DNA of 64,000 nt from Candidatus Pacearchaeota archaeon (GCA_038849525.1 JAWCMS010000001.1:206584-270583); one strand, 5' to 3'. Positions 1,877-24,173 are shown, counted from the stretch's first letter. Notes: a model not told the origin generated them from the sequence alone. Numbers and translations: made by a program.

Positions 1877-2953
1877 ATGAAAGTAATAATTATAGGAAGT
1901 AGTATCGCAGGAGCTTCTGCAGCATTTTTATTAGCAAATTATGCTAATGTTGTTGTTTATGAGAAAAAAGCAAGAAAAGATATTGGCAAAAAAATTTGTC
2001 TGAATAATACAACATCAAGTTTTTTGAATTATTGCAGAAAGTTGGGATTAAATCCAAAAAAATATATTATATCTATATCAGAAAAAGCAAAAATAAAATC
2101 TTCTAATAATATTGTTGTATTTAAAACTAAAGAATTTAAAATTAACAGAGAGAAATTTTTAAATGATCTAATAAAAAAAGCAGAAAAAAAAGGAGCAAAA
2201 TTTTATTTTAATGTAAATTTTTTAGATTTTAAGAAGAATAATAAGTTTAAAATAATCCTTAATGTAGGAAATAAAAAAATTAGCGATTATTCTGATATCC
2301 TTATAGGTGCTGATGGTGCCTTGAGCATTGTTGCAAGAAAAGCAGGTATAAAAAGAAAAACATATCTTGTAATTCAAAAAGAAATTCAATTGAAAAAATT
2401 AAATCTTAGGTTAGAGAGAAATTCGTATAATGTATATGTCGGAAAAAAATTTGGTTATTTTAGTTATATCTTTGTATATAAAGACAAGGCAGTTATAGGG
2501 CTTGCAGATAAATTAGAAACAGCATCTTTAAGATTCAAAAAATTTCTTAAGGAACTAAGAGTCGATACTAAAAATATATCTGCGGCAATAGTTCCAGAGC
2601 CTAATATTTTTCCAAATAAAAAAAATTTGTTTCTTATAGGAGATGCTGGGGGGTATACAAAGTTTTCTGGAGGAGGGATAGTTCCAGCAATTATGTCTGC
2701 ATTTGCAGTAAAAGAAGTAATTGTCAACAATAAATTTGTAAAATTTTTGAATCTGAATAAAAGTATCTTATTTAATCTAATCATATTCAAAATATTAAAA
2801 AAAATGAACGATCGTGATTTTGATTGTTTTATTGAAATAGTCAAAAATAGAAAATTTTCAGATGTTCTTAAAAGAAGAGATGAATTTGAAGTTAAAGATT
2901 TTATAAGGCTTTTTGATTTTAGATTTTTAAAATTTTTACCAAAACTTATTTAA
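1877..2953 (+). CDS. Geranylgeranyl reductase family FAD-dependent oxidoreductase
   Basis: N-terminal dinucleotide-binding motif (VIIIGSSIAGASAAFLLA) and a GADGALSIVARKAG motif typical of digeranylgeranylglycerophospholipid reductases. Confidence 0.75.
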   Translation: MKVIIIGSSIAGASAAFLLANYANVVVYEKKARKDIGKKICLNNTTSSFLNYCRKLGLNPKKYIISISEKAKIKSSNNIVVFKTKEFKINREKFLNDLIKKAEKKGAKFYFNVNFLDFKKNNKFKIILNVGNKKISDYSDILIGADGALSIVARKAGIKRKTYLVIQKEIQLKKLNLRLERNSYNVYVGKKFGYFSYIFVYKDKAVIGLADKLETASLRFKKFLKELRVDTKNISAAIVPEPNIFPNKKNLFLIGDAGGYTKFSGGGIVPAIMSAFAVKEVIVNNKFVKFLNLNKSILFNLIIFKILKKMNDRDFDCFIEIVKNRKFSDVLKRRDEFEVKDFIRLFDFRFLKFLPKLI

Positions 2954-3129: not shown

Positions 3130-3150
3130 ACGAAAGGTTTAAATTTACTT
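3130..3150 (+). promoter_or_regulatory. TATA-box-like element (TTTAAATTT) about 25 nt upstream of the 3167 start; leaderless-type promoter
   Basis: AT-rich TATA-like motif at the expected archaeal spacing. No Shine-Dalgarno sequence is evident. Confidence 0.3.
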
Positions 3151-3166: not shown

Positions 3167-4255
3167 ATGTTAATAAATAGAAAAGCGCAAAACGTTCCTT
3201 TTTTAATCATTATAATAGGTCTGCTTTTAGCAATTTATGTTTATTTTATGCCTTTTGATGAAAAATGCAAATTAATCCCTAGTTTACCAGAATGTAAAAA
3301 AGAACTAAAAGTTAAAGTAATAGAGTTTATTCCAGGATTGCTTGAAGAACAAGAAACAGCAGCAAGATATTTTCTTCCAGATATCCAACTTTTTAGAAAA
3401 GATGTTGTAGATATAGCTACAGTACTTGAAAATACAAAAGTAAGTAGAGGATGGTTTTTTTCTTCTTCTGGCGAAGAGGTTTTTAATGCACAAGAAAATG
3501 CTAGAGAAGCAAAGTTATTCATTTTTGTAAACAAAGCTGAGGGAGGTCTTAAAATTTATATAAACAATAAAAAAATAGGTACTATTTATGGTGAAGGAGT
3601 ACATCAAATTTATTTAGATGTAAATGACATTAAAGAAACAAACAAAATAAAAGTTATTCCTACTATTCCATTATTCCCTTTCTTTTTAAATGATTACGAG
3701 ATAGGAAAAATAATACTAAAAGAGAATTATATTATCACAAACAATCGCGTTAATCTGCCATTTTTTATAACACAAAATAAAAATGACATTCTTGATATTA
3801 AACTAAATTTCAAAACAAGATGCTTTACTGAAGAAAACTTAAGCGTTTATATTAACTCTGAAAAAATTTTAGAAGATAAAGTATGTAGGGGATTTTCAAA
3901 AGATGTTTTTTCATTAATTAAATTTAATAATATGTCTGGAAATATAACTTTTGCAAGTGAAGGAAATTATATAATAAGGGAAATAACGCTTGATGTGAGG
4001 ATGAAAGAAAGAACATGGCCTATTTATTATTTCTACTTGGAAAAAATTGAAAAGCCGATGACTCTTAAATTAGAATTTAATGAAACTGGTTTAAAACAGC
4101 TTACGGCTTATGTTAATGGCAATGCGCTTTCTGTTGAAACAACTAAAAAAGAGTGGAAAACTATAATTAACAGGTATTTAATTGAAAATGCCACTAATTC
4201 TATCCTTTTAATCCCTAAAAAAACAGTAATTATAGAAAAATTAGAGGTTGAATAA
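3167..4255 (+). CDS. Secreted/surface protein with type IV pilin-like (class III) signal peptide
   Basis: N-terminus MLINRKAQ-NVPFLIIIIGLLLAIYVYF matches [KR][GA]Q + hydrophobic helix, the PibD cleavage motif. The rest is a beta-rich soluble domain with no recognisable homology. It is first in a four-gene co-directional cluster. Confidence 0.6.
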   Translation: MLINRKAQNVPFLIIIIGLLLAIYVYFMPFDEKCKLIPSLPECKKELKVKVIEFIPGLLEEQETAARYFLPDIQLFRKDVVDIATVLENTKVSRGWFFSSSGEEVFNAQENAREAKLFIFVNKAEGGLKIYINNKKIGTIYGEGVHQIYLDVNDIKETNKIKVIPTIPLFPFFLNDYEIGKIILKENYIITNNRVNLPFFITQNKNDILDIKLNFKTRCFTEENLSVYINSEKILEDKVCRGFSKDVFSLIKFNNMSGNITFASEGNYIIREITLDVRMKERTWPIYYFYLEKIEKPMTLKLEFNETGLKQLTAYVNGNALSVETTKKEWKTIINRYLIENATNSILLIPKKTVIIEKLEVE

Positions 4256-5388
4256 TGGGTGTTCTTAAAGAACTTAAAGAAACCGAAGAGAGAATGAAAA
4301 GAGAAGAGCAATATGAAAAGTTAAAACCATATCTTAAATTTTTTTTATGGCTTTTTTTGATAGTTGTTATTGGCGGAGCAATTTATTTGTTTTATATGTA
4401 TGTTCCTTCCTCATACAAAATTGTTTCAATCATTGTCATTCTAACATTCCTGTTTTTTTTCTTTTCCGCCCCAAAAGAAAAAAGGATATCTACTTTAATT
4501 TTAATGATAATTATAACTATTCTTATTATTATATTTATGCCACAAATAGAATTTTATACTTTTGAAGGATATTCCAAACTTTCTAATGTGTATAGAACTA
4601 TTGGTTCTCATGGTATCGGAGAAGGTTTATCTTGTATAATTAATGCTGAAAAATGTTTTGGAGAAGAGGCGTGGGAGACAAAAACAATGCAACAATTAGG
4701 GGGTAGTATGATCGAAGTTGACTGGAGCAATGCTATAAACAAACAACCATTGAATGTAATTGTCCCAATTAAGATTAGAACTAATGAATCTTTAGAACTG
4801 ATACCTACCTGCTTTTTAGGAGATACCAGAATTGAAACTTTTATTCCTACTGGAGATAGACTTAGATTTATAAGTTCAAATTATATACAAGAAAGTTCTG
4901 TTAGATGTTTTAGTGAAAATAATTTTTCAAATAAACTTGCATTAAAATTTGAAACTTCAATAATTAAAAAGAAATATTATTTTGAAATATGGACTGGAGA
5001 GGGGGCATCAAAAGGAACTATAAACAAAATTGAGTCAGGCCCTTATTCTTTAATAATAAAATCAGCAGATCCACAACCTTTTAGAGAAGGAAGATACCCT
5101 ATAACTCTTGAATTAAGAAAAACATCTGATTTTAATATCGCTAAAATAGAACTATTTAAAGTTGAAACAATTAGCAATAATATCCAAATTGAATGTGATT
5201 TTGATTTTGAAATGAATGCAGATAAAGAAAAATTAAAGCAGTGGCTTAAAGATAAAGATAACTACTTATTTACATGTTATTTGGATGTTGGAAGTACAAC
5301 TGATTTGAAAAAAGACTTTATATCTATTGATTTAAGATATGTTTTTGATGCAGAATATAAGACAATTTTAAAAACTCTTAGTGCTTAA
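4255..5388 (+). CDS. Membrane protein (3 N-terminal TM helices) with large extracytoplasmic domain, hypothetical
   Basis: ATGA start/stop overlap with the upstream gene. Hydrophobic N-terminal third, then a hydrophilic beta-rich domain. Confidence 0.6.
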   Translation: MGVLKELKETEERMKREEQYEKLKPYLKFFLWLFLIVVIGGAIYLFYMYVPSSYKIVSIIVILTFLFFFFSAPKEKRISTLILMIIITILIIIFMPQIEFYTFEGYSKLSNVYRTIGSHGIGEGLSCIINAEKCFGEEAWETKTMQQLGGSMIEVDWSNAINKQPLNVIVPIKIRTNESLELIPTCFLGDTRIETFIPTGDRLRFISSNYIQESSVRCFSENNFSNKLALKFETSIIKKKYYFEIWTGEGASKGTINKIESGPYSLIIKSADPQPFREGRYPITLELRKTSDFNIAKIELFKVETISNNIQIECDFDFEMNADKEKLKQWLKDKDNYLFTCYLDVGSTTDLKKDFISIDLRYVFDAEYKTILKTLSA

Positions 5389-5395
5389 TTAAAAT

Positions 5396-6253
5396 ATGAA
5401 TAAAAAAGAGATTTTAACAGCGGTTTTTTTAGTATTTATCCTAATAGTAATCTCAGGAGTTGAACAATGCCAACAAGGAATCGGTGGTGAGAAAACAAAG
5501 GCAGCGAAGTATGGGGTTGATTTTACACTTCAGCCAGGGCTTGATAGACTTACAGAAGGGAAGGTTATTATGCAGGGAGAAACTTTCTATGTTGATATAC
5601 TTATTGAAAATTTTGATTCCAAACCTAAATCAGGGGAGATTTGCATAAGAGATGATATTAATGAAGTTTATGGGGGAATTAATGATAAATGCAAGACTTT
5701 TAATATTCCAAGTGCAACTTATATCGAAAACAAACTTGAATCTCCAGCATCTATAAGAATTATATTCCCTGAAAATGATTATTATAAGTATGAAGGTATT
5801 CCTGTAGATACAGATGCAACACTTTTTGTTAGTATTTCTTATTTACAACATTCTATAATTTCTGGAGCAGTAAAAGCTCCAGAACCTCAGCAGGAGACTT
5901 TAACTTTGCAACAGACACCGTCTCCCGTATTTGTAACAGTCGATAAGTCTGTGACAAGCATGACTGATAATGTTAAGGTCAATCTAAAAATAGGATTCAC
6001 AAAACAAGGCGAATACAATATCACATCTACAGACTTCAAGAAAGAGGCGATAGTAGTCTTTCCAAAATTAAGTGTATATAACCTTGATTGTCCTGAAATA
6101 AAACAAGGGCTTATTGAATTTAGAAACACAAAATTTATAAGCTGTTCAGCCTTTTTACCTCGAGAACAATATACCCATCCATTACAGCTTACCTTAGATT
6201 ACGGGGTAAAATTAATCAAGTCTTTCGATTTCAAAATAAAAAAAAGTGAATAA
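5396..6253 (+). CDS. Membrane-anchored secreted protein, paralog of 6264..7145; possible lipobox-like Cys
   Basis: N-terminal TM/signal followed by ISGVEQCQQG. It shares the motif order (C-QQ ... GETFYVDILIEN vs GTEFPIYVDVLNAG) with the next gene. Confidence 0.6.
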   Translation: MNKKEILTAVFLVFILIVISGVEQCQQGIGGEKTKAAKYGVDFTLQPGLDRLTEGKVIMQGETFYVDILIENFDSKPKSGEICIRDDINEVYGGINDKCKTFNIPSATYIENKLESPASIRIIFPENDYYKYEGIPVDTDATLFVSISYLQHSIISGAVKAPEPQQETLTLQQTPSPVFVTVDKSVTSMTDNVKVNLKIGFTKQGEYNITSTDFKKEAIVVFPKLSVYNLDCPEIKQGLIEFRNTKFISCSAFLPREQYTHPLQLTLDYGVKLIKSFDFKIKKSE

Positions 6254-6263
6254 AAGAGGATAA

Positions 6264-7145
6264 ATGAAAACTCGCTTATTTATATTGTATTTGATTTCAA
6301 TAATTCTATTACTTATAGTTTTAAGTGGAATTAATGGATGCCCTCAACAACAACCAAAAATTTCAACCACTGGTTTGAAGATGTCATTTGTCAAGGATGC
6401 GCCACCAGTAAGCGTGATTACAGGAACCGAGTTTCCGATATATGTTGATGTACTAAATGCTGGAGGAGAGTTTGTTAACAAGGGAAGTGCTAAGTTCTAT
6501 TTAAGCAATTTGGGCCCAAATTTTGAAAATGTTAAAAGTTCTTTAATTAATGAAAAGACATTAGGAAAAGAATCTGTTTTTCCTGAACGTTTGGTTTTTG
6601 CAGAAAAAGCAAAGTTTACTTTCCCTCTGCAAGATATGTTAGTGGTTCCTCTTGTACTAACAGGATGCTATGATTACAGCGGAAGAGCGCAAGCTTCGGT
6701 GTGTATTACTGGAAGCAATGAAAGCAAAGTGTGTAAAATAGATGGAGAAAAAATAATAAGCAATACAGCTGGCCCTATTCAAATAACAAGTGTAACTGAA
6801 TCTATAAGCAGAAATAAATTGATTTTGATATTTGAAGTAGCAAACAAAGGTAATGGACAAGTATATTTAGCCGATGCAGATTGTGACAAACTTGAAGCAA
6901 GGGATATTACCGAGAGCCAAAAACAAGGTAAGCTAAATATTAAGATAACTACAAAAGATAATTTCAAATGTAAACTTCAATCATCTAGCGGACAAGTAGA
7001 TGGCTTAGAAGGAATAGCCCCATTAGGTAAAATAATCTGCGAGAAGGACATATCTAAAGAAGATTATCTTTCTGTTTTTATTATCGAAACTAGATATAAA
7101 TATAGAGATTCGATAATCCAAAATATAAATATAATGCCTGCATAA
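6264..7145 (+). CDS. Membrane-anchored secreted protein, paralog of 5396..6253; possible lipobox-like Cys
   Basis: N-terminal TM/signal followed by LSGINGCPQQQ. The body contains many Cys residues and is similar to the upstream gene. Confidence 0.6.
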   Translation: MKTRLFILYLISIILLLIVLSGINGCPQQQPKISTTGLKMSFVKDAPPVSVITGTEFPIYVDVLNAGGEFVNKGSAKFYLSNLGPNFENVKSSLINEKTLGKESVFPERLVFAEKAKFTFPLQDMLVVPLVLTGCYDYSGRAQASVCITGSNESKVCKIDGEKIISNTAGPIQITSVTESISRNKLILIFEVANKGNGQVYLADADCDKLEARDITESQKQGKLNIKITTKDNFKCKLQSSSGQVDGLEGIAPLGKIICEKDISKEDYLSVFIIETRYKYRDSIIQNINIMPA

Positions 7146-7218
7146 TTTTTTATAGTATAATTCTATATTATCACTTATTCACAAATATCTTTTTATATTA
7201 GAATTCTGATAAAAAATT

Positions 7219-8427
7219 ATGATTTTTGCCGATTTACATATTCATTCAAGATTTTCAAGAGCGACTAGTAAGAATTTAAATTTAGAAAATATGGAAAAAT
7301 GGGCAAAAATAAAAGGTTTAAATTTGTTAGGGACGGGAGATTTTACTCATCCTAAGTGGATTTCTGAATTAAAAAGTAATTTAGAAGAAAATGATGGGAT
7401 TTTAAAGACAAAAACAGGGTTTTCTTTTATTCTCCAAACAGAGGTTTCTTTAATTTATAGTCAAGATGGAAAAGGAAGAAGAGTCCATTTATTAATCTTA
7501 GCTCCAGATTTTAGTGTTGCTGAACAAATAAATGACTATCTTAGTAAAAAAGGAAGACTCGATTATGATGGTAGACCGGTCTTTAATATTCCTTGCTATG
7601 AGCTAGTAGAAAATTTAATATCTATATCAAAAGATATTGAGATTATTCCAGCACATGCTTGGACACCATGGTTTGGTATATTCGGCTCTGTTACAGGATT
7701 TGATTCGATTGAAGAGGCTTTTAAGGACAAAGCAAAATACATTCATGCATTTGAAACAGGAATGAGCAGCGATCCTGAAATGAATTGGAGGTTGTCATCT
7801 TTGGATAAATATTCAATAGTATCATTTTCTGATTCTCATTCATTTTGGCCTTGGCGTTTGGGGAGGGAAGCTACAATTTTTGATTTTGATATAAATAATT
7901 TGAAATATAAAGATATAATAACTTCAATCAGAAATAATAAAATTAAAGCCACTATAGAAACCTTTCCTAGTTATGGAAAATATCATTTCGATGGTCATAG
8001 GAATTGTAATTTTTCATGCTCTCCTGAAGAAACTAAAAAATTAAATGGTATATGCCCTCTGTGTAAAAAATCTTTAATTATTGGAGTAATGAATAGAGTT
8101 GAAAGACTTGCAGATAGGCCAAAGAATTTTAAACCAAAAAATGCAAAACCCTTTTACAGTCTTTTACCTCTTTCAGAACTTATATCAGTTGTTAGAAAAA
8201 TTCCATTAGGAAGTAAAAAAATAATGGATGAATACACTAAAATGGTTGAGAAAAACTCTGAATTTGATATTTTACTTAATCTACAAAATGAACAACTCAT
8301 GAAAATTTCAGATGAAAAACTAATTAAATTAATAATGTTAAATAGAAATGGAAAAATAAAGATAAAACCTGGTTATGATGGTGTTTATGGAACTTTGATA
8401 ATTGAAGAACAAGCTAAACTTTTTTAA
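7219..8427 (+). CDS. PHP-domain protein of the endonuclease Q (EndoQ) family
   Basis: Begins MIFADLHIHSRFS (PHP metal-binding motif). It has further His/Asp motifs and a Cys4 zinc finger (CNFSC...CPLC) in the C-terminal half, as in EndoQ-family proteins (family placement from memory). Confidence 0.55.
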   Translation: MIFADLHIHSRFSRATSKNLNLENMEKWAKIKGLNLLGTGDFTHPKWISELKSNLEENDGILKTKTGFSFILQTEVSLIYSQDGKGRRVHLLILAPDFSVAEQINDYLSKKGRLDYDGRPVFNIPCYELVENLISISKDIEIIPAHAWTPWFGIFGSVTGFDSIEEAFKDKAKYIHAFETGMSSDPEMNWRLSSLDKYSIVSFSDSHSFWPWRLGREATIFDFDINNLKYKDIITSIRNNKIKATIETFPSYGKYHFDGHRNCNFSCSPEETKKLNGICPLCKKSLIIGVMNRVERLADRPKNFKPKNAKPFYSLLPLSELISVVRKIPLGSKKIMDEYTKMVEKNSEFDILLNLQNEQLMKISDEKLIKLIMLNRNGKIKIKPGYDGVYGTLIIEEQAKLF

Positions 8428-8527
8428 TCCATTTAAATTTATATATGGGAGAAAAAGTCTTTTCTTTACAATTCTCACAAATTTCTTTTAAAGTATAATT
8501 TTTACATTTTAGGCATTTTTTTATCAT
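8414..8527 (-). CDS. nop10: H/ACA ribonucleoprotein subunit Nop10 (short, 37 aa)
   Basis: Minus-strand ORF 2 nt downstream of aIF2alpha encoding MIKKCLKCKNYTLKEICENCKEKTFSPIYKFKWIKKV. This is a CxxC...CxxC zinc ribbon followed by the FSP..Y.KYR-like Nop10 signature. The aIF2alpha-nop10 operon arrangement is conserved in archaea. It is absent from the ORF track (shorter than 60 aa). Confidence 0.7.
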   Translation of the reverse strand: MIKKCLKCKNYTLKEICENCKEKTFSPIYKFKWIKKV

Positions 8528-8529
8528 TT

Positions 8530-9258
8530 TTATTCTTTTTTAACTTCTATTTTTCCGCCCATCATTTTAATTTTTCCTGTTATTATTTCTATTGCAGATT
8601 TTAATTTTTTTTCAGCATCTTTTGGATCATTGCTTTCTGCAACTATCGAATAGTATGGTGCGCCAATATAACTTATTTTAACATTTTTTGCTGAAAGCAA
8701 AGCATCTTTTATTATCGATATACCATTACTTGCATTACTTGAAATAGAGATAATTGCCTTTTGAGAATATACCTTTTCTTTCATCTTTTCTTTAAGTAAA
8801 TCAAGAATTTTTTCTGCTTCCTCTTGTGATACAAATTCATTTATCAGAGAATTATTTTCTCTTACTTTCTCTAAGAATTTATTTAATGAGGAATACTTTC
8901 TTTTTATTTTTTCAGCTATCTGCAAGGCTTTTTCTTTTAAAACAATCTTTAATATTAAAAAAGAATCTTTTTCTTTTTTATATTCTTCTAGAACTTTATG
9001 AGCTTCTTTTTGAGATACTCTTCTTAACGATAGGTCAATATTACCTTTTTCTTTGTTAACTCTTAGAACCTTACATACTATTTTTTTATTGATTGTTACA
9101 TAATCTCTTATATTCCTAATTCTTCCAGGGGCTATTTCCGATGTGGCTATAACTCCTTCTTTATTATAGTTTTCTATATTAACAAATACTGTAGTACCCA
9201 TTATTCTTGTTACGGTACATAATAATAATTCACCTTCTTCAGGAAACTTTTCATCCAT
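8530..9258 (-). CDS. eif2a: Translation initiation factor 2 alpha subunit (aIF2alpha)
   Basis: N-terminal S1 domain (GELLLCTVTRI...NIRDYVTINKKIVCKVLRVNKEKGNIDLSLRRV) and a typical aIF2alpha length. Confidence 0.9.
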   Translation of the reverse strand: MDEKFPEEGELLLCTVTRIMGTTVFVNIENYNKEGVIATSEIAPGRIRNIRDYVTINKKIVCKVLRVNKEKGNIDLSLRRVSQKEAHKVLEEYKKEKDSFLILKIVLKEKALQIAEKIKRKYSSLNKFLEKVRENNSLINEFVSQEEAEKILDLLKEKMKEKVYSQKAIISISSNASNGISIIKDALLSAKNVKISYIGAPYYSIVAESNDPKDAEKKLKSAIEIITGKIKMMGGKIEVKKE

Positions 9259-11080: not shown

Positions 11081-12748
11081 CTATTTAAAACATATATTCT
11101 TGCTACTATTGTCTAATTCAAGCATTATTTTCCATTTAGAGTTATTTTTGATGGCATTGCATTGTTTAAGGAAAAACGATTCTTGTATGAGCGAATAATT
11201 TGAAACTGAAGACTGGCCTGTATGATATACAAATAATAATTTTCTATTATATTTTTTAGATATGTCTTTTAATAGATTTATCTGATCTAGAGTATTAAGA
11301 GGTTCTATATAAAAAACGCCTTGATTTTTATTGCCATATAATGCTTGATAACGATACATCCCCCATTCAGTGATTACATAAAAATAATTTTCTGCTAAGT
11401 ATGGATCATATAACAATTTATTTATGTTTAAATCGACTAAGTCTTTAGCCATTTGTCTTTTAGGGGGGTTATCATGATCTATAAGATGCTGATTTTGAAA
11501 TGAAAAAAAGAAATAACAGTTTACTATCATAAACAAAATTAGCCAAATAGCCATAATTTTGTTAAAATTAATCTTGAAAAAAATAATATCTGTTTCTTTA
11601 AAGGTTTTAACAGCTGTTAAAAAACTTAGAATAAGAAATGGATAAGCCATTACAGCGTGATGCTCCCAAGCAGCTTTTGTCCATATAATGATAATTACAG
11701 TAAAAATAAACAAGGCAAAAAAGATTATTGATTTTAATATCTGTGTTTTAGATTTTTTCTTTAATACTAAAATTAACCATAATAAAGGGATTGATAAATA
11801 GATAAATATATCATAAACATAAACAAAATAAGAAGGAGATTCAACCATATAAATCTCTTTGGTTGATAAGAAAGGATTTATTAGCGCTTGAAATACCGGC
11901 GAATTTATAATATAATTCTTTACATCAAGCATTTCATTAATCGAATAAACTTTAGAATTATCGCTAGATATGAGGGTATAAAGATATGGTTTATTGTTTA
12001 AGTCAAATGATAAGAATAACAAACTTAATAATCCAAGCAATAAAATTAAAGCATAAAATAATTGAATAACTATTTTTTTTAAATTATTTTTTTTGATTAT
12101 TCTCTTTTTATTTTCAATACATTGTGTAATGAAAAGGATTATCAATGATGGTATAAACCATACAAAAGTCAAATTTGTCCATATTCCTAAAAATATAACA
12201 ACAGAAGCAAGTAAAAGATATGTTATTTTAAATTTTTCATTCCATTTTATAAATAAATAAACAATTAAAAATACTGCAGTTATCTGAAATCCGGCAAGCC
12301 CTGGATCAACAATATGTTTAAAAAAATAAGGAAAAAATAAAATAAGACCTGAAAAAATATATCTTGTTTTAATTTTGAATATAGTGCTTAGAATTAATGA
12401 TTGAATAACCAAAAATATTATTCCTAAAAATCTTGCAGAAACAGGACTTTTCCATATCAAAAATAAAGGCAAGTAGTATAACGATGGAAGACTACCCATA
12501 TAAAAATATGTTCTTAAAGGTAACATTAGCCCGGTGTTTAAAAAATTAAGAAAATAAGCAGTACATCCTTCATTGAATATGTTTAAGTAATTATACTTAT
12601 ATGCATAGCAAGTAATTAAATGATACGCAGCAAATTCATCCATGTTATAAGGGACAAAAATAGAAAAAATTATTACTAAAATTAAACCTAAAAATAATAA
12701 TAGCAATATTTCAAAATATTTGTTTTTATAAACTTCACTTAAATTCAT
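11081..12748 (-). CDS. GT-C fold membrane glycosyltransferase, ArnT/PMT_2-like (paralog 1)
   Basis: Protein with at least 12 TM helices and an acidic motif in the first loop (YNMDEFAAYHL, like DE..RY of ArnT/PMT). It has a C-terminal soluble domain and lies in the glycosylation island. Confidence 0.55.
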   Translation of the reverse strand: MNLSEVYKNKYFEILLLLFLGLILVIIFSIFVPYNMDEFAAYHLITCYAYKYNYLNIFNEGCTAYFLNFLNTGLMLPLRTYFYMGSLPSLYYLPLFLIWKSPVSARFLGIIFLVIQSLILSTIFKIKTRYIFSGLILFFPYFFKHIVDPGLAGFQITAVFLIVYLFIKWNEKFKITYLLLASVVIFLGIWTNLTFVWFIPSLIILFITQCIENKKRIIKKNNLKKIVIQLFYALILLLGLLSLLFLSFDLNNKPYLYTLISSDNSKVYSINEMLDVKNYIINSPVFQALINPFLSTKEIYMVESPSYFVYVYDIFIYLSIPLLWLILVLKKKSKTQILKSIIFFALFIFTVIIIIWTKAAWEHHAVMAYPFLILSFLTAVKTFKETDIIFFKINFNKIMAIWLILFMIVNCYFFFSFQNQHLIDHDNPPKRQMAKDLVDLNINKLLYDPYLAENYFYVITEWGMYRYQALYGNKNQGVFYIEPLNTLDQINLLKDISKKYNRKLLFVYHTGQSSVSNYSLIQESFFLKQCNAIKNNSKWKIMLELDNSSKNICFK

Positions 12749-12758
12749 GCTATTTTCA

Positions 12759-12857
12759 TAGCCCTACTCGGATTCGAACCGAGGTCCCAACCTTTCTTCT
12801 TTAGAACGCTTTCGCGTATCCAAAGGGTTGTATCCTTGACCGCTGGACGATAGGGCT
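12759..12857 (-). tRNA. tRNA-Gln: tRNA-Gln(TTG) with about 25-nt intron at 37/38
   Basis: Manual fold: acceptor AGCCCTA/TAGGGCT, D-stem GTCC/GGAT, anticodon stem CAACC/GGTTG with loop CTTTGGA (anticodon TTG) interrupted after the loop by ACGCGAAAGCG..., T-arm CTCGG-TTCGAAT-CCGAG. Confidence 0.7.
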
Positions 12858-12875
12858 ATGATTCTTTATTTGTTT

Positions 12876-13631
12876 TTAAGATTTATAAACTAAACTGCTT
12901 TTTCTTTTATTATATTCTAATATGTGATTAAAAACAACATTTAATATTCCTAAACCATATTTAAATGATTCGAGAAAAGAGATTTTATGGGATTCAGGTC
13001 CATAGTATGTTGGGATAGTGATTTCTTTTATTAACTTCTTTTTTAATATAATTTGAGATACAATTTGTTGGTCAAATACATAACTATCTGAATTTTTATT
13101 AAAATCTATTTCTTTTAAAATATGGCAATCATATGCTCTAAATCCTGAATGATACTCTGAAAGATTTAATCCAAAAGCAATATTTTCAATAAAAGTTAAT
13201 AATCTATTGAAGATATACCTCCATAAAGGCATCCCATTCTTAAGAGGGTTTCCTTTTATTCTTGAACCTAAAACCATTGAAGCATGTTTTTTTTCAATTA
13301 ATTCAGAGAGTTTGTCGACCATTTGGGCAGGATACTGGTCATCTCCGTGAAGCATAATCACTATATCAAATCCATTTTTTATACAGTAGTTATAAGCTTT
13401 CTTCTGATTTCCTCCGTAACCAAGATTTTTTTTATTTTTTATGACTTTAATTTTCGAGATATTATTTTTTATTTTATATTTAATGGCATTTTCATAAGTT
13501 TTATCATTACTGGCATCGTCAATTACTAATATTTCATGAACTTTTTTAAAAAAATGTTTTGGAATTTTATCAAGAACTTTTTGTATTGTCCTCTCAGCAT
13601 AATAACATGGAATAAAAAGGCATATCTTCAT
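12876..13631 (-). CDS. GT2 family glycosyltransferase (dolichol-phosphate sugar synthase-like)
   Basis: CLFIPCYYAE...ILVIDDASNDKT...GYGGNQKKAY fits the GT-A DxD architecture of DPM/DPG synthase-like enzymes. Confidence 0.75.
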   Translation of the reverse strand: MKICLFIPCYYAERTIQKVLDKIPKHFFKKVHEILVIDDASNDKTYENAIKYKIKNNISKIKVIKNKKNLGYGGNQKKAYNYCIKNGFDIVIMLHGDDQYPAQMVDKLSELIEKKHASMVLGSRIKGNPLKNGMPLWRYIFNRLLTFIENIAFGLNLSEYHSGFRAYDCHILKEIDFNKNSDSYVFDQQIVSQIILKKKLIKEITIPTYYGPESHKISFLESFKYGLGILNVVFNHILEYNKRKSSLVYKS

Positions 13632-13663
13632 TTTGTTTAAAGTTAAGATACCTATAAAAAGTT

Positions 13664-15313
13664 TTATACGCTAATTAAATCATTTCTTAGATAAACATAT
13701 GCATACCAAGGTAGTACTGTTCTTGTACCCCCATCAAAACTTTTTGAAAGGCTCATATTTGGAATATTGCTCATAGTTTTATAATAGTCAGGAATGACTA
13801 CTGCTGCTTCTGCTTGGCTTAGCTTTGTTGAGTTTATATACATTTTAGGCAATTCATAATTATATGTCCAATCTCTTATAAAATTACTTTCATCGCCAAG
13901 ATTTCCACCATAAACTATATCTTTATAACAATAAAGGTCAAATATAACTACCAAGGGCTCTGGATTATATTTTTGTCCAAGAAATATAGGATTGGCTTCA
14001 GTTTCTTCAGCAGTAAAAGAAGAAGTATAAACTGCAACTGTTTTAACATTGTCTAATTTATTTAAATATTGTGCAGCTTTTAGAAGATTGCTATCTCCTG
14101 CATTTTTTATTAAAGGAACAAACCCAAATAATGAGATGATAAGTCCAGAAAATAATATTAGAAGAACAGTATATTTTGCAAGATTTTTTTTATTTTTGAA
14201 TATTTTAAATATCATAAATCCTGAAATAATAGCAATAGCAGGTGTAGCGGGAATATAATACCTAAACATCGTATCATGATATGCAACTAAAAAAATTGGC
14301 AGAGCTGGAATTAAAATCCAAGAATATAAAATTAAACATTCTTTTTTCTTTATAAAAAATATGCCTGGAAGTATCAGTAGAAATACAGGGCCTATTTGAA
14401 AAATAATTGCAAGTAGACCTTTTCCAGAGGCAGCAGCATTAAAACTACCTGCATATAATGCATATCTTCCAATATCAATTATTTTTTGTAAATTAAAAAG
14501 AATAATCATAATAACTATTGTTATTAGTAAAATTATTGCTATCAATAACTTTTTGTTCTTAATTCTAAATAAGGTCATGATTAGTAATGGTGGAACAAAA
14601 AACATTGCAGTATGCATTTTTGTTAGTACCGATAAAATCGCTAAAATTGTCAAAAGTAGAAACCAATGAACTTTTTTTTTCTCAAATGCAATTATACTTA
14701 TATAAAGTGATAATGTAACAAAGAAACATGCTGGGATATCTACAAGTGCAAGTCCTATCCAAGCTATTACACCATGCATGCTAGTGAAAATTAATGCTGC
14801 ATAGGTTCCAACAACTTTATTAAATAGCTTTTTTGCTATCAAAAAAGTAAGAAACACAATTGATGAGTAAAGAAGTGAATTAAATGCTTCTATAATAATA
14901 AGAGATTCTCCAAATATAGTATATAGTATTTTATAAATTATCGGAATTAAAGGCATATCCGTTCCTCTATTCCCTACATTTACATTTAAATCTTTTGCGT
15001 GAGTGAGATATCTAGCAGAGTCTGGATCTATCTGAGGACTATTCCAAAAAAAAGTTGTAATCAAAAATGAAAATAAAAAAATCACAATCATTAATTTTTT
15101 TTCGTTGATCTTTTCAATATTAATTTTTTTTGAAATTAAATATGCACAAATTGCAAGAGGTATTAGAATAATGATAAATTTTACAAAACTTAATTTAATT
15201 ATGTTTAAACTAAACAAGATAGTTATATCCAAATTTGAAAATTTGAAAAGTAGAAAATAAGCTACAACTAAAATAATAGATATCAATGTATAATACAATA
15301 TTTCTTTTTTCAT
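13664..15313 (-). CDS. GT-C fold membrane glycosyltransferase, ArnT/PMT_2-like (paralog 2)
   Basis: Many TM helices. The first-loop motif IDPDSARYLTHA resembles the DExRY(A) signature of ArnT/PMT_2. A C-terminal soluble domain is present. Confidence 0.6.
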   Translation of the reverse strand: MKKEILYYTLISIILVVAYFLLFKFSNLDITILFSLNIIKLSFVKFIIILIPLAICAYLISKKINIEKINEKKLMIVIFLFSFLITTFFWNSPQIDPDSARYLTHAKDLNVNVGNRGTDMPLIPIIYKILYTIFGESLIIIEAFNSLLYSSIVFLTFLIAKKLFNKVVGTYAALIFTSMHGVIAWIGLALVDIPACFFVTLSLYISIIAFEKKKVHWFLLLTILAILSVLTKMHTAMFFVPPLLIMTLFRIKNKKLLIAIILLITIVIMIILFNLQKIIDIGRYALYAGSFNAAASGKGLLAIIFQIGPVFLLILPGIFFIKKKECLILYSWILIPALPIFLVAYHDTMFRYYIPATPAIAIISGFMIFKIFKNKKNLAKYTVLLILFSGLIISLFGFVPLIKNAGDSNLLKAAQYLNKLDNVKTVAVYTSSFTAEETEANPIFLGQKYNPEPLVVIFDLYCYKDIVYGGNLGDESNFIRDWTYNYELPKMYINSTKLSQAEAAVVIPDYYKTMSNIPNMSLSKSFDGGTRTVLPWYAYVYLRNDLISV

Positions 15314-15356
15314 ATTGATTCTTATAGCATATAAATAAAAATACTTTTAAATTTTT

Positions 15357-16832
15357 TTATAAAAGTTCTATAATAAGAGCAATTATATCTATTATATACA
15401 GTATTATTAATATTATTAATATAAAATAAAGAATAAATGTGAATATTTTATTATCTATCTTTTTCTCAATTTTTTCAAACCCTTTAGTAAATAGTGCAAG
15501 AAATGCAAGCATACCTGGTAATATATATTCTATTCTCATACATCCAAAATCCCTATATATTGCAGTGAAATAAATTATAAATATAATATAAAAGAGAACT
15601 ATTATTAAAAATAATTCTGAGTTATTTGTATCAAGAGAATTATTTCTTATTTTTCTGATGTAATCTATAATAGCAGAGATAAATCCAAATATAAATATAA
15701 ATAACGGGATTAATGCTAAAATAAAAATTGTTCTACTTATGTTTAGTATCCATGGTTTAAAAGTTTCCCATGAATGTGGCCAACTTGCAAATTGTATCAC
15801 ATTCAATCTTCCATAAAGCTGAGTCCATAGCGATGTTCTATGTAGTTGCATAGGTAGACGATGATGCGTTATTTTTGGTTCTTTTATTAATTCAAATATT
15901 CTAAAAGTAAAATAAGAATCTATAATTGAGGTTACACCGGCTCGGTAATGCAGAATATAAAAACTTTTTGTAGGACCACTATCATTTTTATCAGGGTTTA
16001 GATATGAAAATACTTGGGGGTTTATGATTATTTTATAAGCTGAAGAATAATCTATTTCTTTTGGTAGAGGGTAGGGGGGCATATTCGTTACAAATGCATT
16101 TTTATAATGCTTGAAAGAATAATAATATTCTCCTAAAAATGGAACAGTAATAAAGATAAGAATAACAAAGAAAATTAAGAATTTTATTAAAGATCTGCGA
16201 TATTTTCTATTATGGAGGGTAATTATTTTTATAAAAAATATTACAATAAAACTTAAAAACAAAGGTACAGCGGTTCCTTTTGTTATAATCGCTAATATAA
16301 GTGATACCGTCGCAGGTATAAAATGTTTTATTTTTAAAGAAATTATGAATAAATAAAAGAAATATGTTGCAATACAAGAAAATAATATTGCTAAAGAATC
16401 ATTTGTTGCTTGTATATTAACAGCTATAAGCCCAGGATTAAAGGCGGTTAAAGCAAGAATTATTAATTTTATTTTTTTATTTGAAGTAATTTTATTTAAA
16501 AATAAGTATACTATTAATATAGTTAACATCCCCGCAATTACATTAACCATCTGTGCAATAGTTATCATGTCTTTAGGATTGACTAAGAATAATTTAAATA
16601 TGGTTGCACATAGCAGATGGTAAAATTTTGGCTGAAAGCATTCCCAACAATCTGTTAGATGTGGGATTATGTTTTTATAAAGTATAATATATATAATTTG
16701 CATATGGTCGTCATTACTTTCTTGATTTAGAAATCCTAAAAATACTCTCAAAGTAAGAGCAATTAAGAAGATAATAATTATAAATACAGTGTAAAAATTT
16801 ATTTTATTTTTTTTGAGCATTTTATCTAACAA
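15357..16832 (-). CDS. GT-C fold membrane glycosyltransferase-like protein (paralog 3)
   Basis: Polytopic membrane protein with acidic first-loop residues (ESNDDHMQIIY) and a topology similar to the two neighbours. Confidence 0.5.
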   Translation of the reverse strand: MLDKMLKKNKINFYTVFIIIIFLIALTLRVFLGFLNQESNDDHMQIIYIILYKNIIPHLTDCWECFQPKFYHLLCATIFKLFLVNPKDMITIAQMVNVIAGMLTILIVYLFLNKITSNKKIKLIILALTAFNPGLIAVNIQATNDSLAILFSCIATYFFYLFIISLKIKHFIPATVSLILAIITKGTAVPLFLSFIVIFFIKIITLHNRKYRRSLIKFLIFFVILIFITVPFLGEYYYSFKHYKNAFVTNMPPYPLPKEIDYSSAYKIIINPQVFSYLNPDKNDSGPTKSFYILHYRAGVTSIIDSYFTFRIFELIKEPKITHHRLPMQLHRTSLWTQLYGRLNVIQFASWPHSWETFKPWILNISRTIFILALIPLFIFIFGFISAIIDYIRKIRNNSLDTNNSELFLIIVLFYIIFIIYFTAIYRDFGCMRIEYILPGMLAFLALFTKGFEKIEKKIDNKIFTFILYFILIILIILYIIDIIALIIELL

Positions 16833-16907
16833 GATATAATATACTTTTAAATATTTTTAAGAACCATTAAGTTAACTTTATATATTTGTTAAATAACAAA
16901 ATAAAAT

Positions 16908-17594
16908 ATGAATAATTTTAGATTTTACATACAATCTGAATCAACTAGTTTTTTTAGATATTGTATTGAACAATTTTTATTTTTTCTTTTTTCATGGATT
17001 CCAGGGTTTTTGGGAATTGGATTGAGAGGGTTGTTCTATAAAATAATTATAAAATCTGATGGCCTACCGAAAATAGAAGATAGGGTAAGAATAAGACATT
17101 CAAAAGGCCTTAAATTAGGGAAAAATGTTTATATTGGCGATGGAGTTTATTTACATGCGATGCCTAATGGCATTAAAATAGGCGATGAAACAATAATTCT
17201 GCATAATTCAGAATTACATGTTTTTAATTATAGGAATTTGAAAAATTCTAAAATTAATATTGGAAAAAATTGTTTTATTGGAGAATATTGTATAATGCGG
17301 GGACAAGGCGGTATAGAAATTGGGAATAATGTTCTAATTGCACCGCGAGTTTCGATTCTTGCGGTTAATCATGACTACAATGATCTAGAACAAAATTGGA
17401 GAGTTGGAAAAATAATTGGGAAAGGAATAATAATTAAAGATAATGCGTGGCTTGGGGCCGGTTCTATTATTCTTGATGGAGTAACAATTGGCAAAAATGC
17501 TGTTATTGGGGCCGGTTCTGTTGTAACAAAAGATGTACCAGATAATACATTAGTTGGGGGAATTCCTGCAAAGGTTATTAAAAAGTTAAGATGA
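16908..17594 (+). CDS. Left-handed beta-helix (hexapeptide repeat) sugar O-acetyltransferase, WcaF/WbbJ-like
   Basis: Tandem hexapeptide repeats ([19 protein letters not shown]...[31 protein letters not shown]) and an N-terminal hydrophobic segment. Confidence 0.8.
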
Positions 17595-18277
17595 AACATA
17601 TATATAATCAATTGAAAGAACTTACTATAATAATTCCAGTATACAATGAAGAAAGAGGAATTATAAATACTATCAATGAAATAAAAAAAGGATGCCCTAA
17701 TGCAAAAATTCTTGTAGTTAATGATGGTAGTACTGACAAAACTTCTATTATTCTTAAAAAAATCAAAAATATTAGTGTAGTAAATCATAAGACTAATAGA
17801 GGATATGGGGCCGCATTAAAAACAGGCATTATAAATGCTAAAACGAAATATATAGCATTTATTGATGCAGATGATACATATCCTCCAATTTACATTCCTG
17901 TCCTTTTGAATAAATTAATAAAACACAATCTTGATTGTGTGTGGGCCAATAGATTTGTAAGTGGAAACAGTATGCCATTGATACGAAAAATAGGAAATAA
18001 AATAATTATTCTGTTTTTTTTAATAATTACCGGAAAAAAAGTACAAGATGTTTCAAGTGGTGAAAGAGTATTCAAAAAAGATGCGTTTGATAAAATTGAT
18101 TTTATGTCTATTCCCAATGGATTGGATACAATAAGTGCATTAACAAAAAGAATAGTTTCACGAGGATTAAAATATAAAGAAGTTCCTATAGAATATCATA
18201 AAAGAGTAGGCAATTCAAAATTGAAGATATTTAGAGATGGTTATTTGATGATGAAGAATATTCTACTAGAAAAATAA
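17591..18277 (+). CDS. GT2 family glycosyltransferase (Dol-P-glucose/mannose synthase-like)
   Basis: [12 protein letters not shown]...[11 protein letters not shown]...[11 protein letters not shown]...[14 protein letters not shown] overlap with the upstream acetyltransferase. Confidence 0.8.
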
Positions 18278-22205: not shown

Positions 22206-24173
22206 TTATAACGGACATATTCCTTTAGGGCAACTTTGTGCAAATTGCGATTTGGCTATTAATCCTTCAGCGCCTTTATATAAAACTTGTTTTTCTTTGC
22301 TGCCATACCTATAAATTGTAATTCCTTTACATTTCAATTTCCATGCAAGTAAATAAATTTTTTTAATATCTTCCTTTGTTGCTGTCTGTGGGAGATTCAC
22401 TGTTTTACTTACTGCATTGTCTACATATTTTTGAAATACAGCTTGCATTTTTACATGCTGCTCAGGAGGGATCTCTAAAGCTGTAACAAATATTTTTTTA
22501 ATATCATTTGGAAGATTTGTTTCTTTTAAGGTCCCAGTTCTTATTATTTTCTTTATTATTTTCTCATTCCATAAATTTCTTTTAATTAGCTCATTTTGGA
22601 AAATTGGATTGATTTCAACTAATTTTTTGTTTTCAAGTACTTCTCTATAAAAAGCAAGAGCAAATAATGGTTCTATTCCTGAACTGCAACCAGCTATTAT
22701 TGAAATTGTTCCTGTTGGAGCAATTGTAAGCATAGTTGTATTTCTTTTTGATTTCTTTTTCGCTTCTTTCTTGATGAAAGATATGATCTTTTTGGCTAAT
22801 TTAAATGACTCTTCTGAACCATAAGGAATTTTCATTAATAAAAGCATATCTGCGAAACCCATTATTCCCAATCCTATTTTGCGGTTTTTTTTAGTTATTT
22901 TTTCTATTTCAGGTAGAGGATATTTATTTTTGTCAATTACATTATTAAGAAAAGAAACTCCTAAATGTGTAAGTTCTTTTAACTTATTCCAATCTATTAC
23001 TATCTTTCTTTTGACTTTTTTTAATACTTTTACTAAATTTATGCTTCCTAAATTACATGATTCATAAGGTAGCAAAGGAACTTCGCCGCATGGATTAGTA
23101 GCTTCTATTTTTTCTTTCAAAGGATTTTTTCTATTTATTTCATCAATGAATATTAACCCTGGATCACCTGTTTGCCAAGCATTCTCAACAATTAAATCAA
23201 AGAGTTGTTTTGCATTTATTTTTTTAACAACCTTATGGTTTCTTGGATTAATCAAATTGAAATTTTTATTTTTTTCAACTTTTTTAAGAAAATCATCTGT
23301 TACTGCAACTGAAATATTAAAATTACTTAGTTTCTTATCTTGTTTTGACATTATAAATTCAATAATGTCAGGATGATTGATATTTAATATCCCCATATTT
23401 GCACCTCTTCTTTTTCCCCCTTGTTTAATCGTTTCAGTAGTTGCATCATAAATTTTCATAAATGACACTGGACCACTTGCGATACCTTTTGTTGATTTTA
23501 CTATGTCTCCTTTAGGCCTTATTTTTGAAAAGCTAAAACCTGTCCCTCCTCCGCTTTGCTGTATTCTCACCATGTTATTGAGAGTCTTAAAGATACTTTC
23601 GAGAGAATCTTCTATAGGCAATACAAAGCAAGCAGACAATTGTCCAATTTTTGTGCCCGCATTCATTAATGTCGGGGAATTGGGCAAAAATTCAAGATTT
23701 TTCATCGCATTAAAAAATTTTTTCTTTTCCTTTTGATTATTCCCAATAAAATTCGCAACTCTTTTGAACATTTCTGTAGGAGTTTCGATTATATTTCCAT
23801 TGTTATCTTTCAATAAATAACGTTCTTCAAGAACTTTTAAAGCATTAACTGAGAGCTTTAAATCATCTTTGATTTTAAAATACTCTTTGATTTCTCTTGC
23901 ATGCCCTCTTGAACGCCTATATAAAGAATATACTTTAAATAATCTTGAATCATGTTTTTCAAGAACTTGTTCAACAATATCTTGGATTTCTTCTACCGAA
24001 GGAATTTCGATACCTTTAGCTTCAAGTTCAGAAATTACTTCATTTGTAAAAAGTTTGGATTTTTTTCTGTCTAAAGCATCAATAGCTTTTTGAGCTTTTT
24101 CTATTGCATTTTGAATTCTTTCAGCTTTAAAAGGTACCACCTCTCCTGTCCTCTTTATTACCTCTTTTATCAT
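22206..24173 (-). CDS. nrdJ: Class II (adenosylcobalamin-dependent) ribonucleotide reductase NrdJ with N-terminal ATP-cone
   Basis: ATP-cone at the N-terminus (VIKRTGEVVPFKAERIQNAI). Active-site NPCGE motif typical of class II enzymes. C-terminal redox Cys pair (CPKGICPL). Confidence 0.85.
   Translation of the reverse strand: MIKEVIKRTGEVVPFKAERIQNAIEKAQKAIDALDRKKSKLFTNEVISELEAKGIEIPSVEEIQDIVEQVLEKHDSRLFKVYSLYRRSRGHAREIKEYFKIKDDLKLSVNALKVLEERYLLKDNNGNIIETPTEMFKRVANFIGNNQKEKKKFFNAMKNLEFLPNSPTLMNAGTKIGQLSACFVLPIEDSLESIFKTLNNMVRIQQSGGGTGFSFSKIRPKGDIVKSTKGIASGPVSFMKIYDATTETIKQGGKRRGANMGILNINHPDIIEFIMSKQDKKLSNFNISVAVTDDFLKKVEKNKNFNLINPRNHKVVKKINAKQLFDLIVENAWQTGDPGLIFIDEINRKNPLKEKIEATNPCGEVPLLPYESCNLGSINLVKVLKKVKRKIVIDWNKLKELTHLGVSFLNNVIDKNKYPLPEIEKITKKNRKIGLGIMGFADMLLLMKIPYGSEESFKLAKKIISFIKKEAKKKSKRNTTMLTIAPTGTISIIAGCSSGIEPLFALAFYREVLENKKLVEINPIFQNELIKRNLWNEKIIKKIIRTGTLKETNLPNDIKKIFVTALEIPPEQHVKMQAVFQKYVDNAVSKTVNLPQTATKEDIKKIYLLAWKLKCKGITIYRYGSKEKQVLYKGAEGLIAKSQFAQSCPKGICPL

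Follow-up and report, generated by a model that had tools for sequence, protein, structure and literature searches.

An operon of four putatively exported surface proteins

Four adjacent genes, here designated P1 to P4, occupy positions 3167 to 7145 of a 64,000-nucleotide (nt) stretch of DNA from a Candidatus Pacearchaeota archaeon (GCA_038849525.1, JAWCMS010000001.1:206584-270583; the whole stretch is referred to below as the window, and positions are counted from its first letter). The window is part of a 400-kb metagenome-assembled contig, on which these genes form a single tight operon predicted to encode exported, membrane-anchored proteins in this DPANN archaeon. The interpretation favored here, with moderate confidence, is that this previously undescribed DPANN operon, found in Woesearchaeota and Pacearchaeota, specifies a membrane-anchored cell-surface complex of disulfide-containing, mostly beta-sandwich proteins, and not a filament. 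A first-pass annotation of the window had described the genes as a dedicated surface-structure locus for a pilus-like assembly; the surface-locus part of that description agrees with an operon of predicted exported, membrane-anchored proteins, and the "pilus locus" reading was not supported. The relevant features are as follows.

1051 to 1836, - strand: gene for an A24 (PibD/FlaK-type) prepilin peptidase (Pfam Peptidase_A24, 2.6e-14), the candidate P1-processing enzyme
3133 to 3146, + strand: putative archaeal B-recognition element (BRE)/TATA element, AAAGGTTTAAATTT, ~25 nt before the P1 start codon
3167 to 4255, + strand: P1, 362 amino acids (aa), with a class III (prepilin-peptidase)-like N terminus and an all-beta, jelly-roll, galactose-binding-domain-like ectodomain
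4255 to 5388, + strand: P2, 377 aa, with three predicted membrane helices and a Cys-containing ectodomain, described from the open reading frame (ORF) and its hydropathy
5396 to 6253, + strand: P3, 285 aa, with a signal helix, Cys25 (VEQC), and two beta domains; a divergent P4 paralog
6264 to 7145, + strand: P4, 293 aa, lipoprotein-like, with a signal helix at residues 2 to 21, Cys26 (INGC), and two beta-sandwiches
7146 to 7151, + strand: possible archaeal oligo-T terminator of six T residues, directly after the P4 stop codon

As first annotated, the four ORFs are co-directional on the + strand and tightly spaced, with a one-base overlap between P1 and P2 (TAATG at 4253 to 4257) and gaps of 7 nt between P2 and P3 and 10 nt between P3 and P4. 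GAGG-like motifs lie upstream of P2 and P4. The putative promoter and terminator were read from the sequence of the window, which has a G+C content of ~25 to 30%; the position of AAAGGTTTAAATTT is compatible with a leaderless or short-leader transcript, and a similar element, AAAGATTTATAT, lies ahead of P1 in a related locus (L023). P1, P2, and P4 are identical to the proteins QW041_01340, QW041_01345, and QW041_01355, and conserved homologs in the same order on other contigs indicate that P1 to P4 are real genes. None of the four products reached the threshold of any Pfam or NCBIfam model, in agreement with the earlier statement that they contain no recognizable domain.

Conservation of the operon in Pacearchaeota and Woesearchaeota

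A word-indexed search returned 17 close homologs of P1, and a locus search with the alignment of close P1 homologs yielded 2 genome loci and 10 metagenome loci. The profile built from the 17 close homologs recovered full-length homologs with ~20% identity at five Woesearchaeota-type loci (E values of 1e-16 to 1e-37). The order P1-P2-P3-P4 was invariant in the Pacearchaeota-type contigs that were long enough (the window, L001, L002, L008, L009, and L010), with partial representation in L014 to L022. L007 contained P2-P3-P4 without a called P1, and a gap of ~600 bp (4761 to 5376) lies at the P1 position.

In the Woesearchaeota-type loci L012, L013, L024, L025, and L026, the interval from the Pelota gene to the RFC small-subunit gene encodes, in order, a homolog of P1, a polytopic membrane protein, and three lipoproteins of the P4 family whose lipoboxes are canonical; in L013 and L024, other genes separate the last lipoprotein from RFC. 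Two further loci, L005 and L006, have only two lipoproteins, beside RFC. Because the five Woesearchaeota-type loci hold the same core in a different neighborhood, the operon is, on this comparison, older than the Pacearchaeota lineage and conserved in both groups. Near the lipoprotein pair of L005 lies an ORF (13727 to 14419, + strand) encoding a TraB/PrgY/GumN (Tiki-superfamily) protein; this family (arCOG02142) is among the archaeal ortholog groups that co-occur best with archaeal lipoproteins (PMC12462473). The same locus encodes a 294-aa protein (8141 to 9025, + strand; start, MRRRDFLGLAAIVLGC) that looks like a Tat-type lipoprotein.

P2 orthologs follow P1 in all Pacearchaeota loci. P2 has a charged cytoplasmic N terminus, three predicted membrane helices (residues ~25 to 104), and a 270-aa ectodomain, and its Cys positions are conserved. 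A protein search with the P2 alignment matched two proteins, namely P2 of the window and one ortholog that had already been sampled; as this search scored the 8000 candidates sharing the most words, among which hydrophobic word matches may have displaced others, its result has no bearing on how widely P2 is distributed. Comparisons by hhalign gave no significant similarity of P1 or P2 to the P3 and P4 families or to each other, and weak colinear alignments of the C-terminal part of P2 with the second domain of P4 were below significance. In the Woesearchaeota operons, the P2 position is occupied by other polytopic proteins of 515 to 1112 aa. A domain shared by these proteins with Pacearchaeota P2 or with the P4 family was considered and set aside as speculation, the hhalign alignments being colinear yet at 8 to 10% probability.

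The largest position-2 protein, in L024 (5385 to 8723, + strand; 1112 aa), was annotated with an SLT lytic transglycosylase domain (Pfam, 6.7e-9; 35.8 bits versus a cutoff of 21.3) and has a Cys-rich tail; its contig is 1.84 Mb long, with 49% G+C in the fetched locus. The SLT domain in this one Woesearchaeota-type protein hints at a link to cell-wall glycans. A 926-aa CBM9 protein is encoded 5 kb downstream of it.

P3 and P4 as remote paralogs and putative lipoproteins

The first-pass annotation had called P3 and P4 paralogs. A pairwise BLASTP comparison was not significant (E value of 0.16, non-colinear), but profile-profile comparison by hhalign of a P3-family alignment from six loci with a P4-family alignment of 62 sequences settled the question, with a probability of 98.1% (E value of 7e-14) over 270 colinear columns running from the signal peptide to the C-terminal strand. 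Because of this score and its full-length colinearity, P3 and P4 were accepted, on their sequence profiles, as true but remote paralogs, with an identity of ~14%. The P4 family is large: a phmmer search of 1.84 billion representatives (E value of ≤1e-3) returned 671 clusters at 50% identity, nearly all ~300 aa in length. All named members belong to Pacearchaeota, Nanoarchaeota, or Woesearchaeota, and every one is annotated as hypothetical.

Directly after their signal helices, P3 (ISGVEQCQQG) and P4 (LSGINGCPQQQ) share the motif SG(V/I)xxC(Q/P)QQ, which had been noted as reminiscent of a lipobox. This likeness was borne out in the wider family, in which the same Cys sits in a canonical L[AS]GC lipobox in distant members, and the motif is best described as the local form of a family-wide feature, a putative degenerate lipobox. 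A Cys just past the hydrophobic region was present in 242 of 247 full-length P4-family members, of which 232 had G, A, or S at position -1. When the consensus was set as [LVI] at -3, [ASTVI] at -2, [GAS] at -1, and C at +1 after the signal h-region, a strict bacterial-type lipobox was found in 95 of the 242, mainly Woesearchaeota, with LAGC, LSGC, VSGC, and LTAC as typical forms. The number of downstream Cys residues was even in 216 of 221 P4-family members (exactly six in 198), and each of the six P3-family members has 1 + 4 Cys residues, Cys25 being invariant. Since the later Cys residues come in even numbers, the N-terminal Cys appears to be the unpaired one in both families, as expected for a lipidated residue. 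Among 96 ORFs of the window scanned for a [GAS]C lipobox-like site, only P4 was recovered.

P3 and P4 are probably lipidated, with an archaeol thioether on the N-terminal Cys formed through the archaeal AliA pathway, and this assignment is supported by the reported prevalence of lipoproteins and of the lipidation enzyme AliA in DPANN (PMC12462473). Like archaeal lipobox lipoproteins (AliA/AliB dependent, with an archaeol thioether anchor; PMC12462473), P3 and P4 show a basic n-region ahead of a hydrophobic h-region, and across the family the Cys is conserved with a small residue at -1. In contrast to these lipoproteins, their mature domains fall in no described family, the Pacearchaeota boxes (INGC, VEGC, and VEQC) are relaxed relative to [LVI][ASTVI][GAS]C, and no AliA gene was identified in the present analysis. 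A literature search on Woesearchaeota lipoproteins and CARDB turned up nothing relevant.

The AlphaFold2 model of P4 was very confident (predicted local distance difference test score [pLDDT], 95.5) and consists of two beta-sandwiches, of which the first (residues ~38 to 148) is CARDB-like and the second spans residues ~165 to 291; six Cys residues besides Cys26 are conserved. P4 had no Pfam match to CARDB (PF07705) above the gathering threshold, and a PDB sequence search with the P4 profile gave nothing below an E value of 0.04. P4 differs from CARDB-domain cell-surface proteins (PF07705; PDB 3idu, Pyrococcus PF1109) in that it falls below every Pfam threshold and in that its second domain, with the six-Cys pattern, has no specific match. 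A viral origin of P4 was rejected, as a fold search of BFVD gave only meaningless low-TM matches. The window also encodes a 412-aa CARDB-domain protein (47242 to 48480, + strand; Pfam, 1.5e-10) that is unrelated to the P4 family by hidden Markov model, with a MacB/FtsX-type ATP-binding cassette (ABC) permease (48493 to 49716, + strand) directly downstream.

P1 leader, neighboring A24 peptidase, and ectodomain

P1 starts with MLINRKAQNVPFLIIIIGLLLAIYVYF, in which RKAQ is followed by one hydrophobic helix (RKA/QN, with the slash marking the candidate cleavage site; hydrophobic core of ~20 residues; helix at residues 5 to 27). The prepilin-like character first ascribed to this N terminus was supported by its conservation: of 30 distinct N termini of P1 homologs, 27 have [KR][GA][QEA] abutting the hydrophobic core on its N-terminal side. 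The variants were RKAQ in the window; KKGE, KRAE, and KRGQ in Pacearchaeota; and RKGQ, KRGQ, RRAQ, and RRGQ in Woesearchaeota. The P1 leader has the elements of a class III signal, namely, a basic leader with [KR] at -2 and G or A at -1, right before the hydrophobic stretch, and known archaeal prepilin processing sites include KGQV, KGQI, and RAQI (PMC4371748). No signal-peptidase-I-type site was found after the helix in the P1 family alignment, the helix ending in a conserved Y-x-Y-F-L-P. Because the conserved motif agrees with experimentally defined sites and no signal-peptidase-I-type site follows the helix, the P1 leader is considered compatible with class III (prepilin-peptidase) processing. 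A plain signal anchor is a possible alternative for this N terminus.

In a simple scan of the 96 window ORFs, class-III-like N termini were found in four: P1, an ORF at 30304 (634 aa), a weaker case at 19777, and a 76-aa ORF (23146 to 23376) that lies antisense inside a ribonucleotide reductase gene and is probably spurious. The 634-aa protein (30304 to 32208, + strand) has a textbook class-III-like start, MVKGQIGLFVIIAILIIG, and no Pfam match; its gene overlaps the start of the next (32205 to 37112, + strand), which encodes a 1635-aa protein, also without a Pfam match. The two may constitute a large pilin-like or adhesin pair, and the 634-aa protein is presumably the first class III protein implied when the first-pass annotation counted P1 as the second.

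The A24 prepilin peptidase gene that had been placed 1.3 kb from the cluster is genuine by its Pfam match and lies 1,330 bp from P1; its product also gave weak matches to archaeal C-terminal domains. All 10 of the distinct Pacearchaeota loci have an ortholog ≤2.2 kb upstream of P1, in three different arrangements: divergent with a reductase gene in between (window type), divergent and directly adjacent (L008), or co-directional and 36 bp upstream of P1 (L023). The retention of this adjacency through rearrangements provides modest evidence of a functional link, and the P1 leader is probably cut by the neighboring PibD-type A24 peptidase. The gene between the A24 gene and P1 in the window (1877 to 2953, + strand) encodes a geranylgeranyl-reductase-like FAD protein; the same gene is found there in most Pacearchaeota loci and is not at that position in L008. 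In L007, a longer A24-like peptidase of 349 aa is encoded (3711 to 4760, - strand; no Pfam match on record; phmmer, 1.3e-35).

The AlphaFold2 model of P1 (pLDDT, 86.3) contains the helix at residues 5 to 27 only, followed by a Cys34-Cys43 loop, a low-confidence linker, and jelly rolls. The modeled ectodomain is all-beta and carbohydrate-binding-module-like, and the P1 family gave weak matches to galactose-binding-domain-like Pfam families, the best being BetaGal_gal-bd (6.5e-5). Neither P1 nor nine family members matched Pilin_N or TIGR02537, even at an E value of ≤1, and the long alpha1 helix of pilins, which packs against a beta-sheet, is missing from the model. With a jelly-roll ectodomain, no pilin N-terminal match, and a helix of membrane length only, P1 as modeled is not pilin-like.

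Sugar-binding proteins with class III signals that are encoded away from type IV filament (TFF) clusters have been documented in Sulfolobales (bioRxiv 10.64898/2026.04.22.720090). P1 resembles these bindosome proteins, which are PibD substrates, in several respects: it is extracellular without being a pilin, its [KR][GA]/Q-type leader precedes a single hydrophobic helix, its gene lies near an A24 peptidase gene, and its ectodomain is sugar-binding-like. It differs in having a jelly-roll/carbohydrate-binding-module fold rather than an ABC-type solute-binding fold, in the absence of ABC transporter or Bas/TFF genes nearby, and in its location in one operon, predicted to be cotranscribed, with lipoproteins.

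A proposed membrane-anchored surface complex and its alternatives

All four products are predicted to place disulfide-containing, beta-rich ectodomains outside the membrane, to which P1 would be held by a single helix, P2 by three, and P3 and P4 probably by lipid. The genes are translationally coupled and the set has been kept in two deeply separated DPANN lineages, which suggests that P1 to P4 act together, and four exposed ectodomains encoded by a coupled, conserved set in turn favor a membrane-anchored heteromeric surface complex. In such a complex, P3 and P4 would be paralogous, Sec-exported lipoproteins that pair with each other, or form a trio where three paralogs are present, as a membrane-proximal scaffold, and the three-helix membrane protein P2 would hold its ectodomain beside them. 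P1, retained by its single N-terminal helix after removal of the leader at [KR][GA]/[QE] by the A24 peptidase, would be an outward arm presenting carbohydrate-binding-module-like jelly rolls for glycan binding. The glycans may belong to a partner cell, to a substrate, or to the envelope of the archaeon itself, and the role of the complex may be adhesion or envelope organization. The Sus-type surface glycan-binding lipoproteins of Bacteroidetes (SusE/SusF) and the WxL/Csc surface-complex clusters of Firmicutes are functional analogies only: they are unrelated in sequence to the operon described here, which has no transporter partner, and they come from another domain of life.

Several observations weigh against this interpretation. 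Interaction among P1 to P4 is a proposal drawn from operon conservation. Adjacency to the A24 gene could be synteny inherited within one lineage, given that EF-1beta, HIT, and eIF2alpha are also conserved neighbors, and no A24 gene was found near the operon in seven Woesearchaeota-type loci (L005, L006, L012, L013, and L024 to L026). Homology between P2 and the position-2 proteins of Woesearchaeota could not be demonstrated (hhalign, 8%), and the SLT fusion is limited to a single observed locus. The lipoboxes of the window are non-canonical, with N at -2 in P4 (INGC) and both a non-canonical -2 residue and Q at -1, which fails the small-residue rule, in P3 (VEQC).

The best-surviving alternative, although considered unlikely, is a bindosome- or pilus-like type IV filament system in which P1 would be a pilin-like protein with a large cargo domain, cut by the A24 peptidase and inserted into a short filament by a remotely encoded ATPase and platform, with P2 to P4 as accessory or base proteins. 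It is supported by the conserved class-III-like motif and A24 adjacency, in that archaeal type IV pili/TFF loci likewise have a class III peptidase gene near a gene with a compatible leader; by the class III signals documented on sugar-binding proteins encoded away from TFF clusters (bioRxiv 10.64898/2026.04.22.720090); by the other class-III-like protein of the window at 30304; and by L001, in which a typical archaeal pilin-like gene, SRKAISSLIATVLLI / MRVIKNNFSRKAISSLIATVLLILVT (13973 to 15010, + strand; weak TIGR02537 and UpsA matches), is inserted directly after P4. A gene for an 894-aa Metallophos/beta-helix protein (15031 to 17715, + strand) is inserted after the pilin-like gene in the same locus.

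Searches for the machinery that a filament would require were negative. No T2SSE/FlaI ATPase or FlaJ/PilC platform was found by Pfam among the 27 larger ORFs of the window (smaller ORFs were unscanned), and none was present in the Pfam annotations of called genes within 8 to 10 kb of the operon in 13 related loci. The operon differs from archaeal type IV pili/TFF loci in this absence and in that P1 has neither a pilin-domain match nor a long alpha1 helix, its modeled helix being of membrane length only and followed by a flexible linker. The Woesearchaeota operons without a nearby A24 gene also argue against a filament, and lipoproteins are not known as TFF core parts. The pilus-like assembly proposed in the first-pass annotation was considered not supported on the basis of the missing ATPase and platform in the scanned ORFs and the 13 loci, the non-pilin nature of P1, and the Woesearchaeota core without A24. 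That annotation had named two findings that would count against a pilus: a lack of co-occurrence with type IV pilus machinery, which agrees with the absence of co-location found here, and signal peptides of ordinary Sec type, which does not hold for P1.

A general envelope scaffold, such as a surface layer (S-layer) anchor or a pseudo-periplasm organizer made of housekeeping structural elements with no ligand-binding role, was judged somewhat less probable than a filament. The operon does have housekeeping genes as neighbors in each lineage (EF-1beta, HIT, and eIF2alpha or Pelota and RFC), the family is broad and apparently vertically inherited, and immunoglobulin (Ig)-like folds are generic. 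Nevertheless, no similarity to known S-layer proteins or anchors was found, an interaction with glycans is suggested by the fold of P1 and by the SLT fusion, and the loci L005 and L006 have no more than two of the lipoproteins, such that the full set is not always together. More doubtful again is the proposal that P3 and P4 are not lipidated, their N-terminal helix being either a standard Sec signal or a signal anchor that stays uncleaved, with the conserved Cys forming an intermolecular disulfide between the paralogs. The off-consensus boxes of the window (Q at -1 in P3 and N at -2 in P4) and the presence of exactly one unpaired Cys per paralog, at the same membrane-proximal place, would fit such a disulfide, but textbook lipoboxes in distant members (LAGC, LSGC, VSGC, and LTAC), the small -1 residue in 232 of 242 members, the three paralogs of Woesearchaeota operons, which would be odd for pairwise disulfides, and the predicted lipoprotein richness of DPANN (PMC12462473) all favor lipidation.

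A speculative reading, to which only a low probability was assigned, is that the operon encodes a host-contact apparatus of Woesearchaeota/Pacearchaeota episymbionts, that is, a lipoprotein-scaffolded complex with a lectin-like, A24-processed P1 arm and, in some lineages, an SLT module. If this were true, these archaea would attach to bacterial hosts, or breach their walls, with a machine that has no relation to the pili and secretion systems known so far; the SLT fusion, if general, would be a notable sign of interaction with bacterial cell walls.

Significance of the operon

Woesearchaeota and Pacearchaeota are abundant uncultivated DPANN archaea whose surface proteins are almost all annotated as hypothetical. 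The surface-complex operon favored here comprises four undescribed protein families with clear membrane-anchoring signals, one of which comprises ~670 clusters (50% identity) and has a structural model of very high confidence, and it represents a defined, widespread target for DPANN cell-surface biology. P3 and P4 offer natural substrates on which the archaeal lipoprotein pathway (AliA), found only recently, could be tested in DPANN, and P1 is likely to be a substrate of an archaeal prepilin peptidase without being a pilin. The anchoring devices (lipobox lipoprotein and class III signal) and the folds (CARDB/Ig-like and jelly roll) are known. The four families and the conserved operon have no counterpart in Pfam, NCBIfam, or PDB and no annotated member; they constitute a lineage-specific surface-protein operon and not a new category of system.

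Other membrane proteins encoded in the window

Elsewhere in the window, three large polytopic membrane proteins are encoded close together on the - strand (11081 to 16832). Two of these ORFs (13664 to 15313 and 15357 to 16832) matched the PMT_2 GT-C glycosyltransferase family; the third spans 11081 to 12748, and a 251-aa ORF (12876 to 13631) lies between the first and second of the three.

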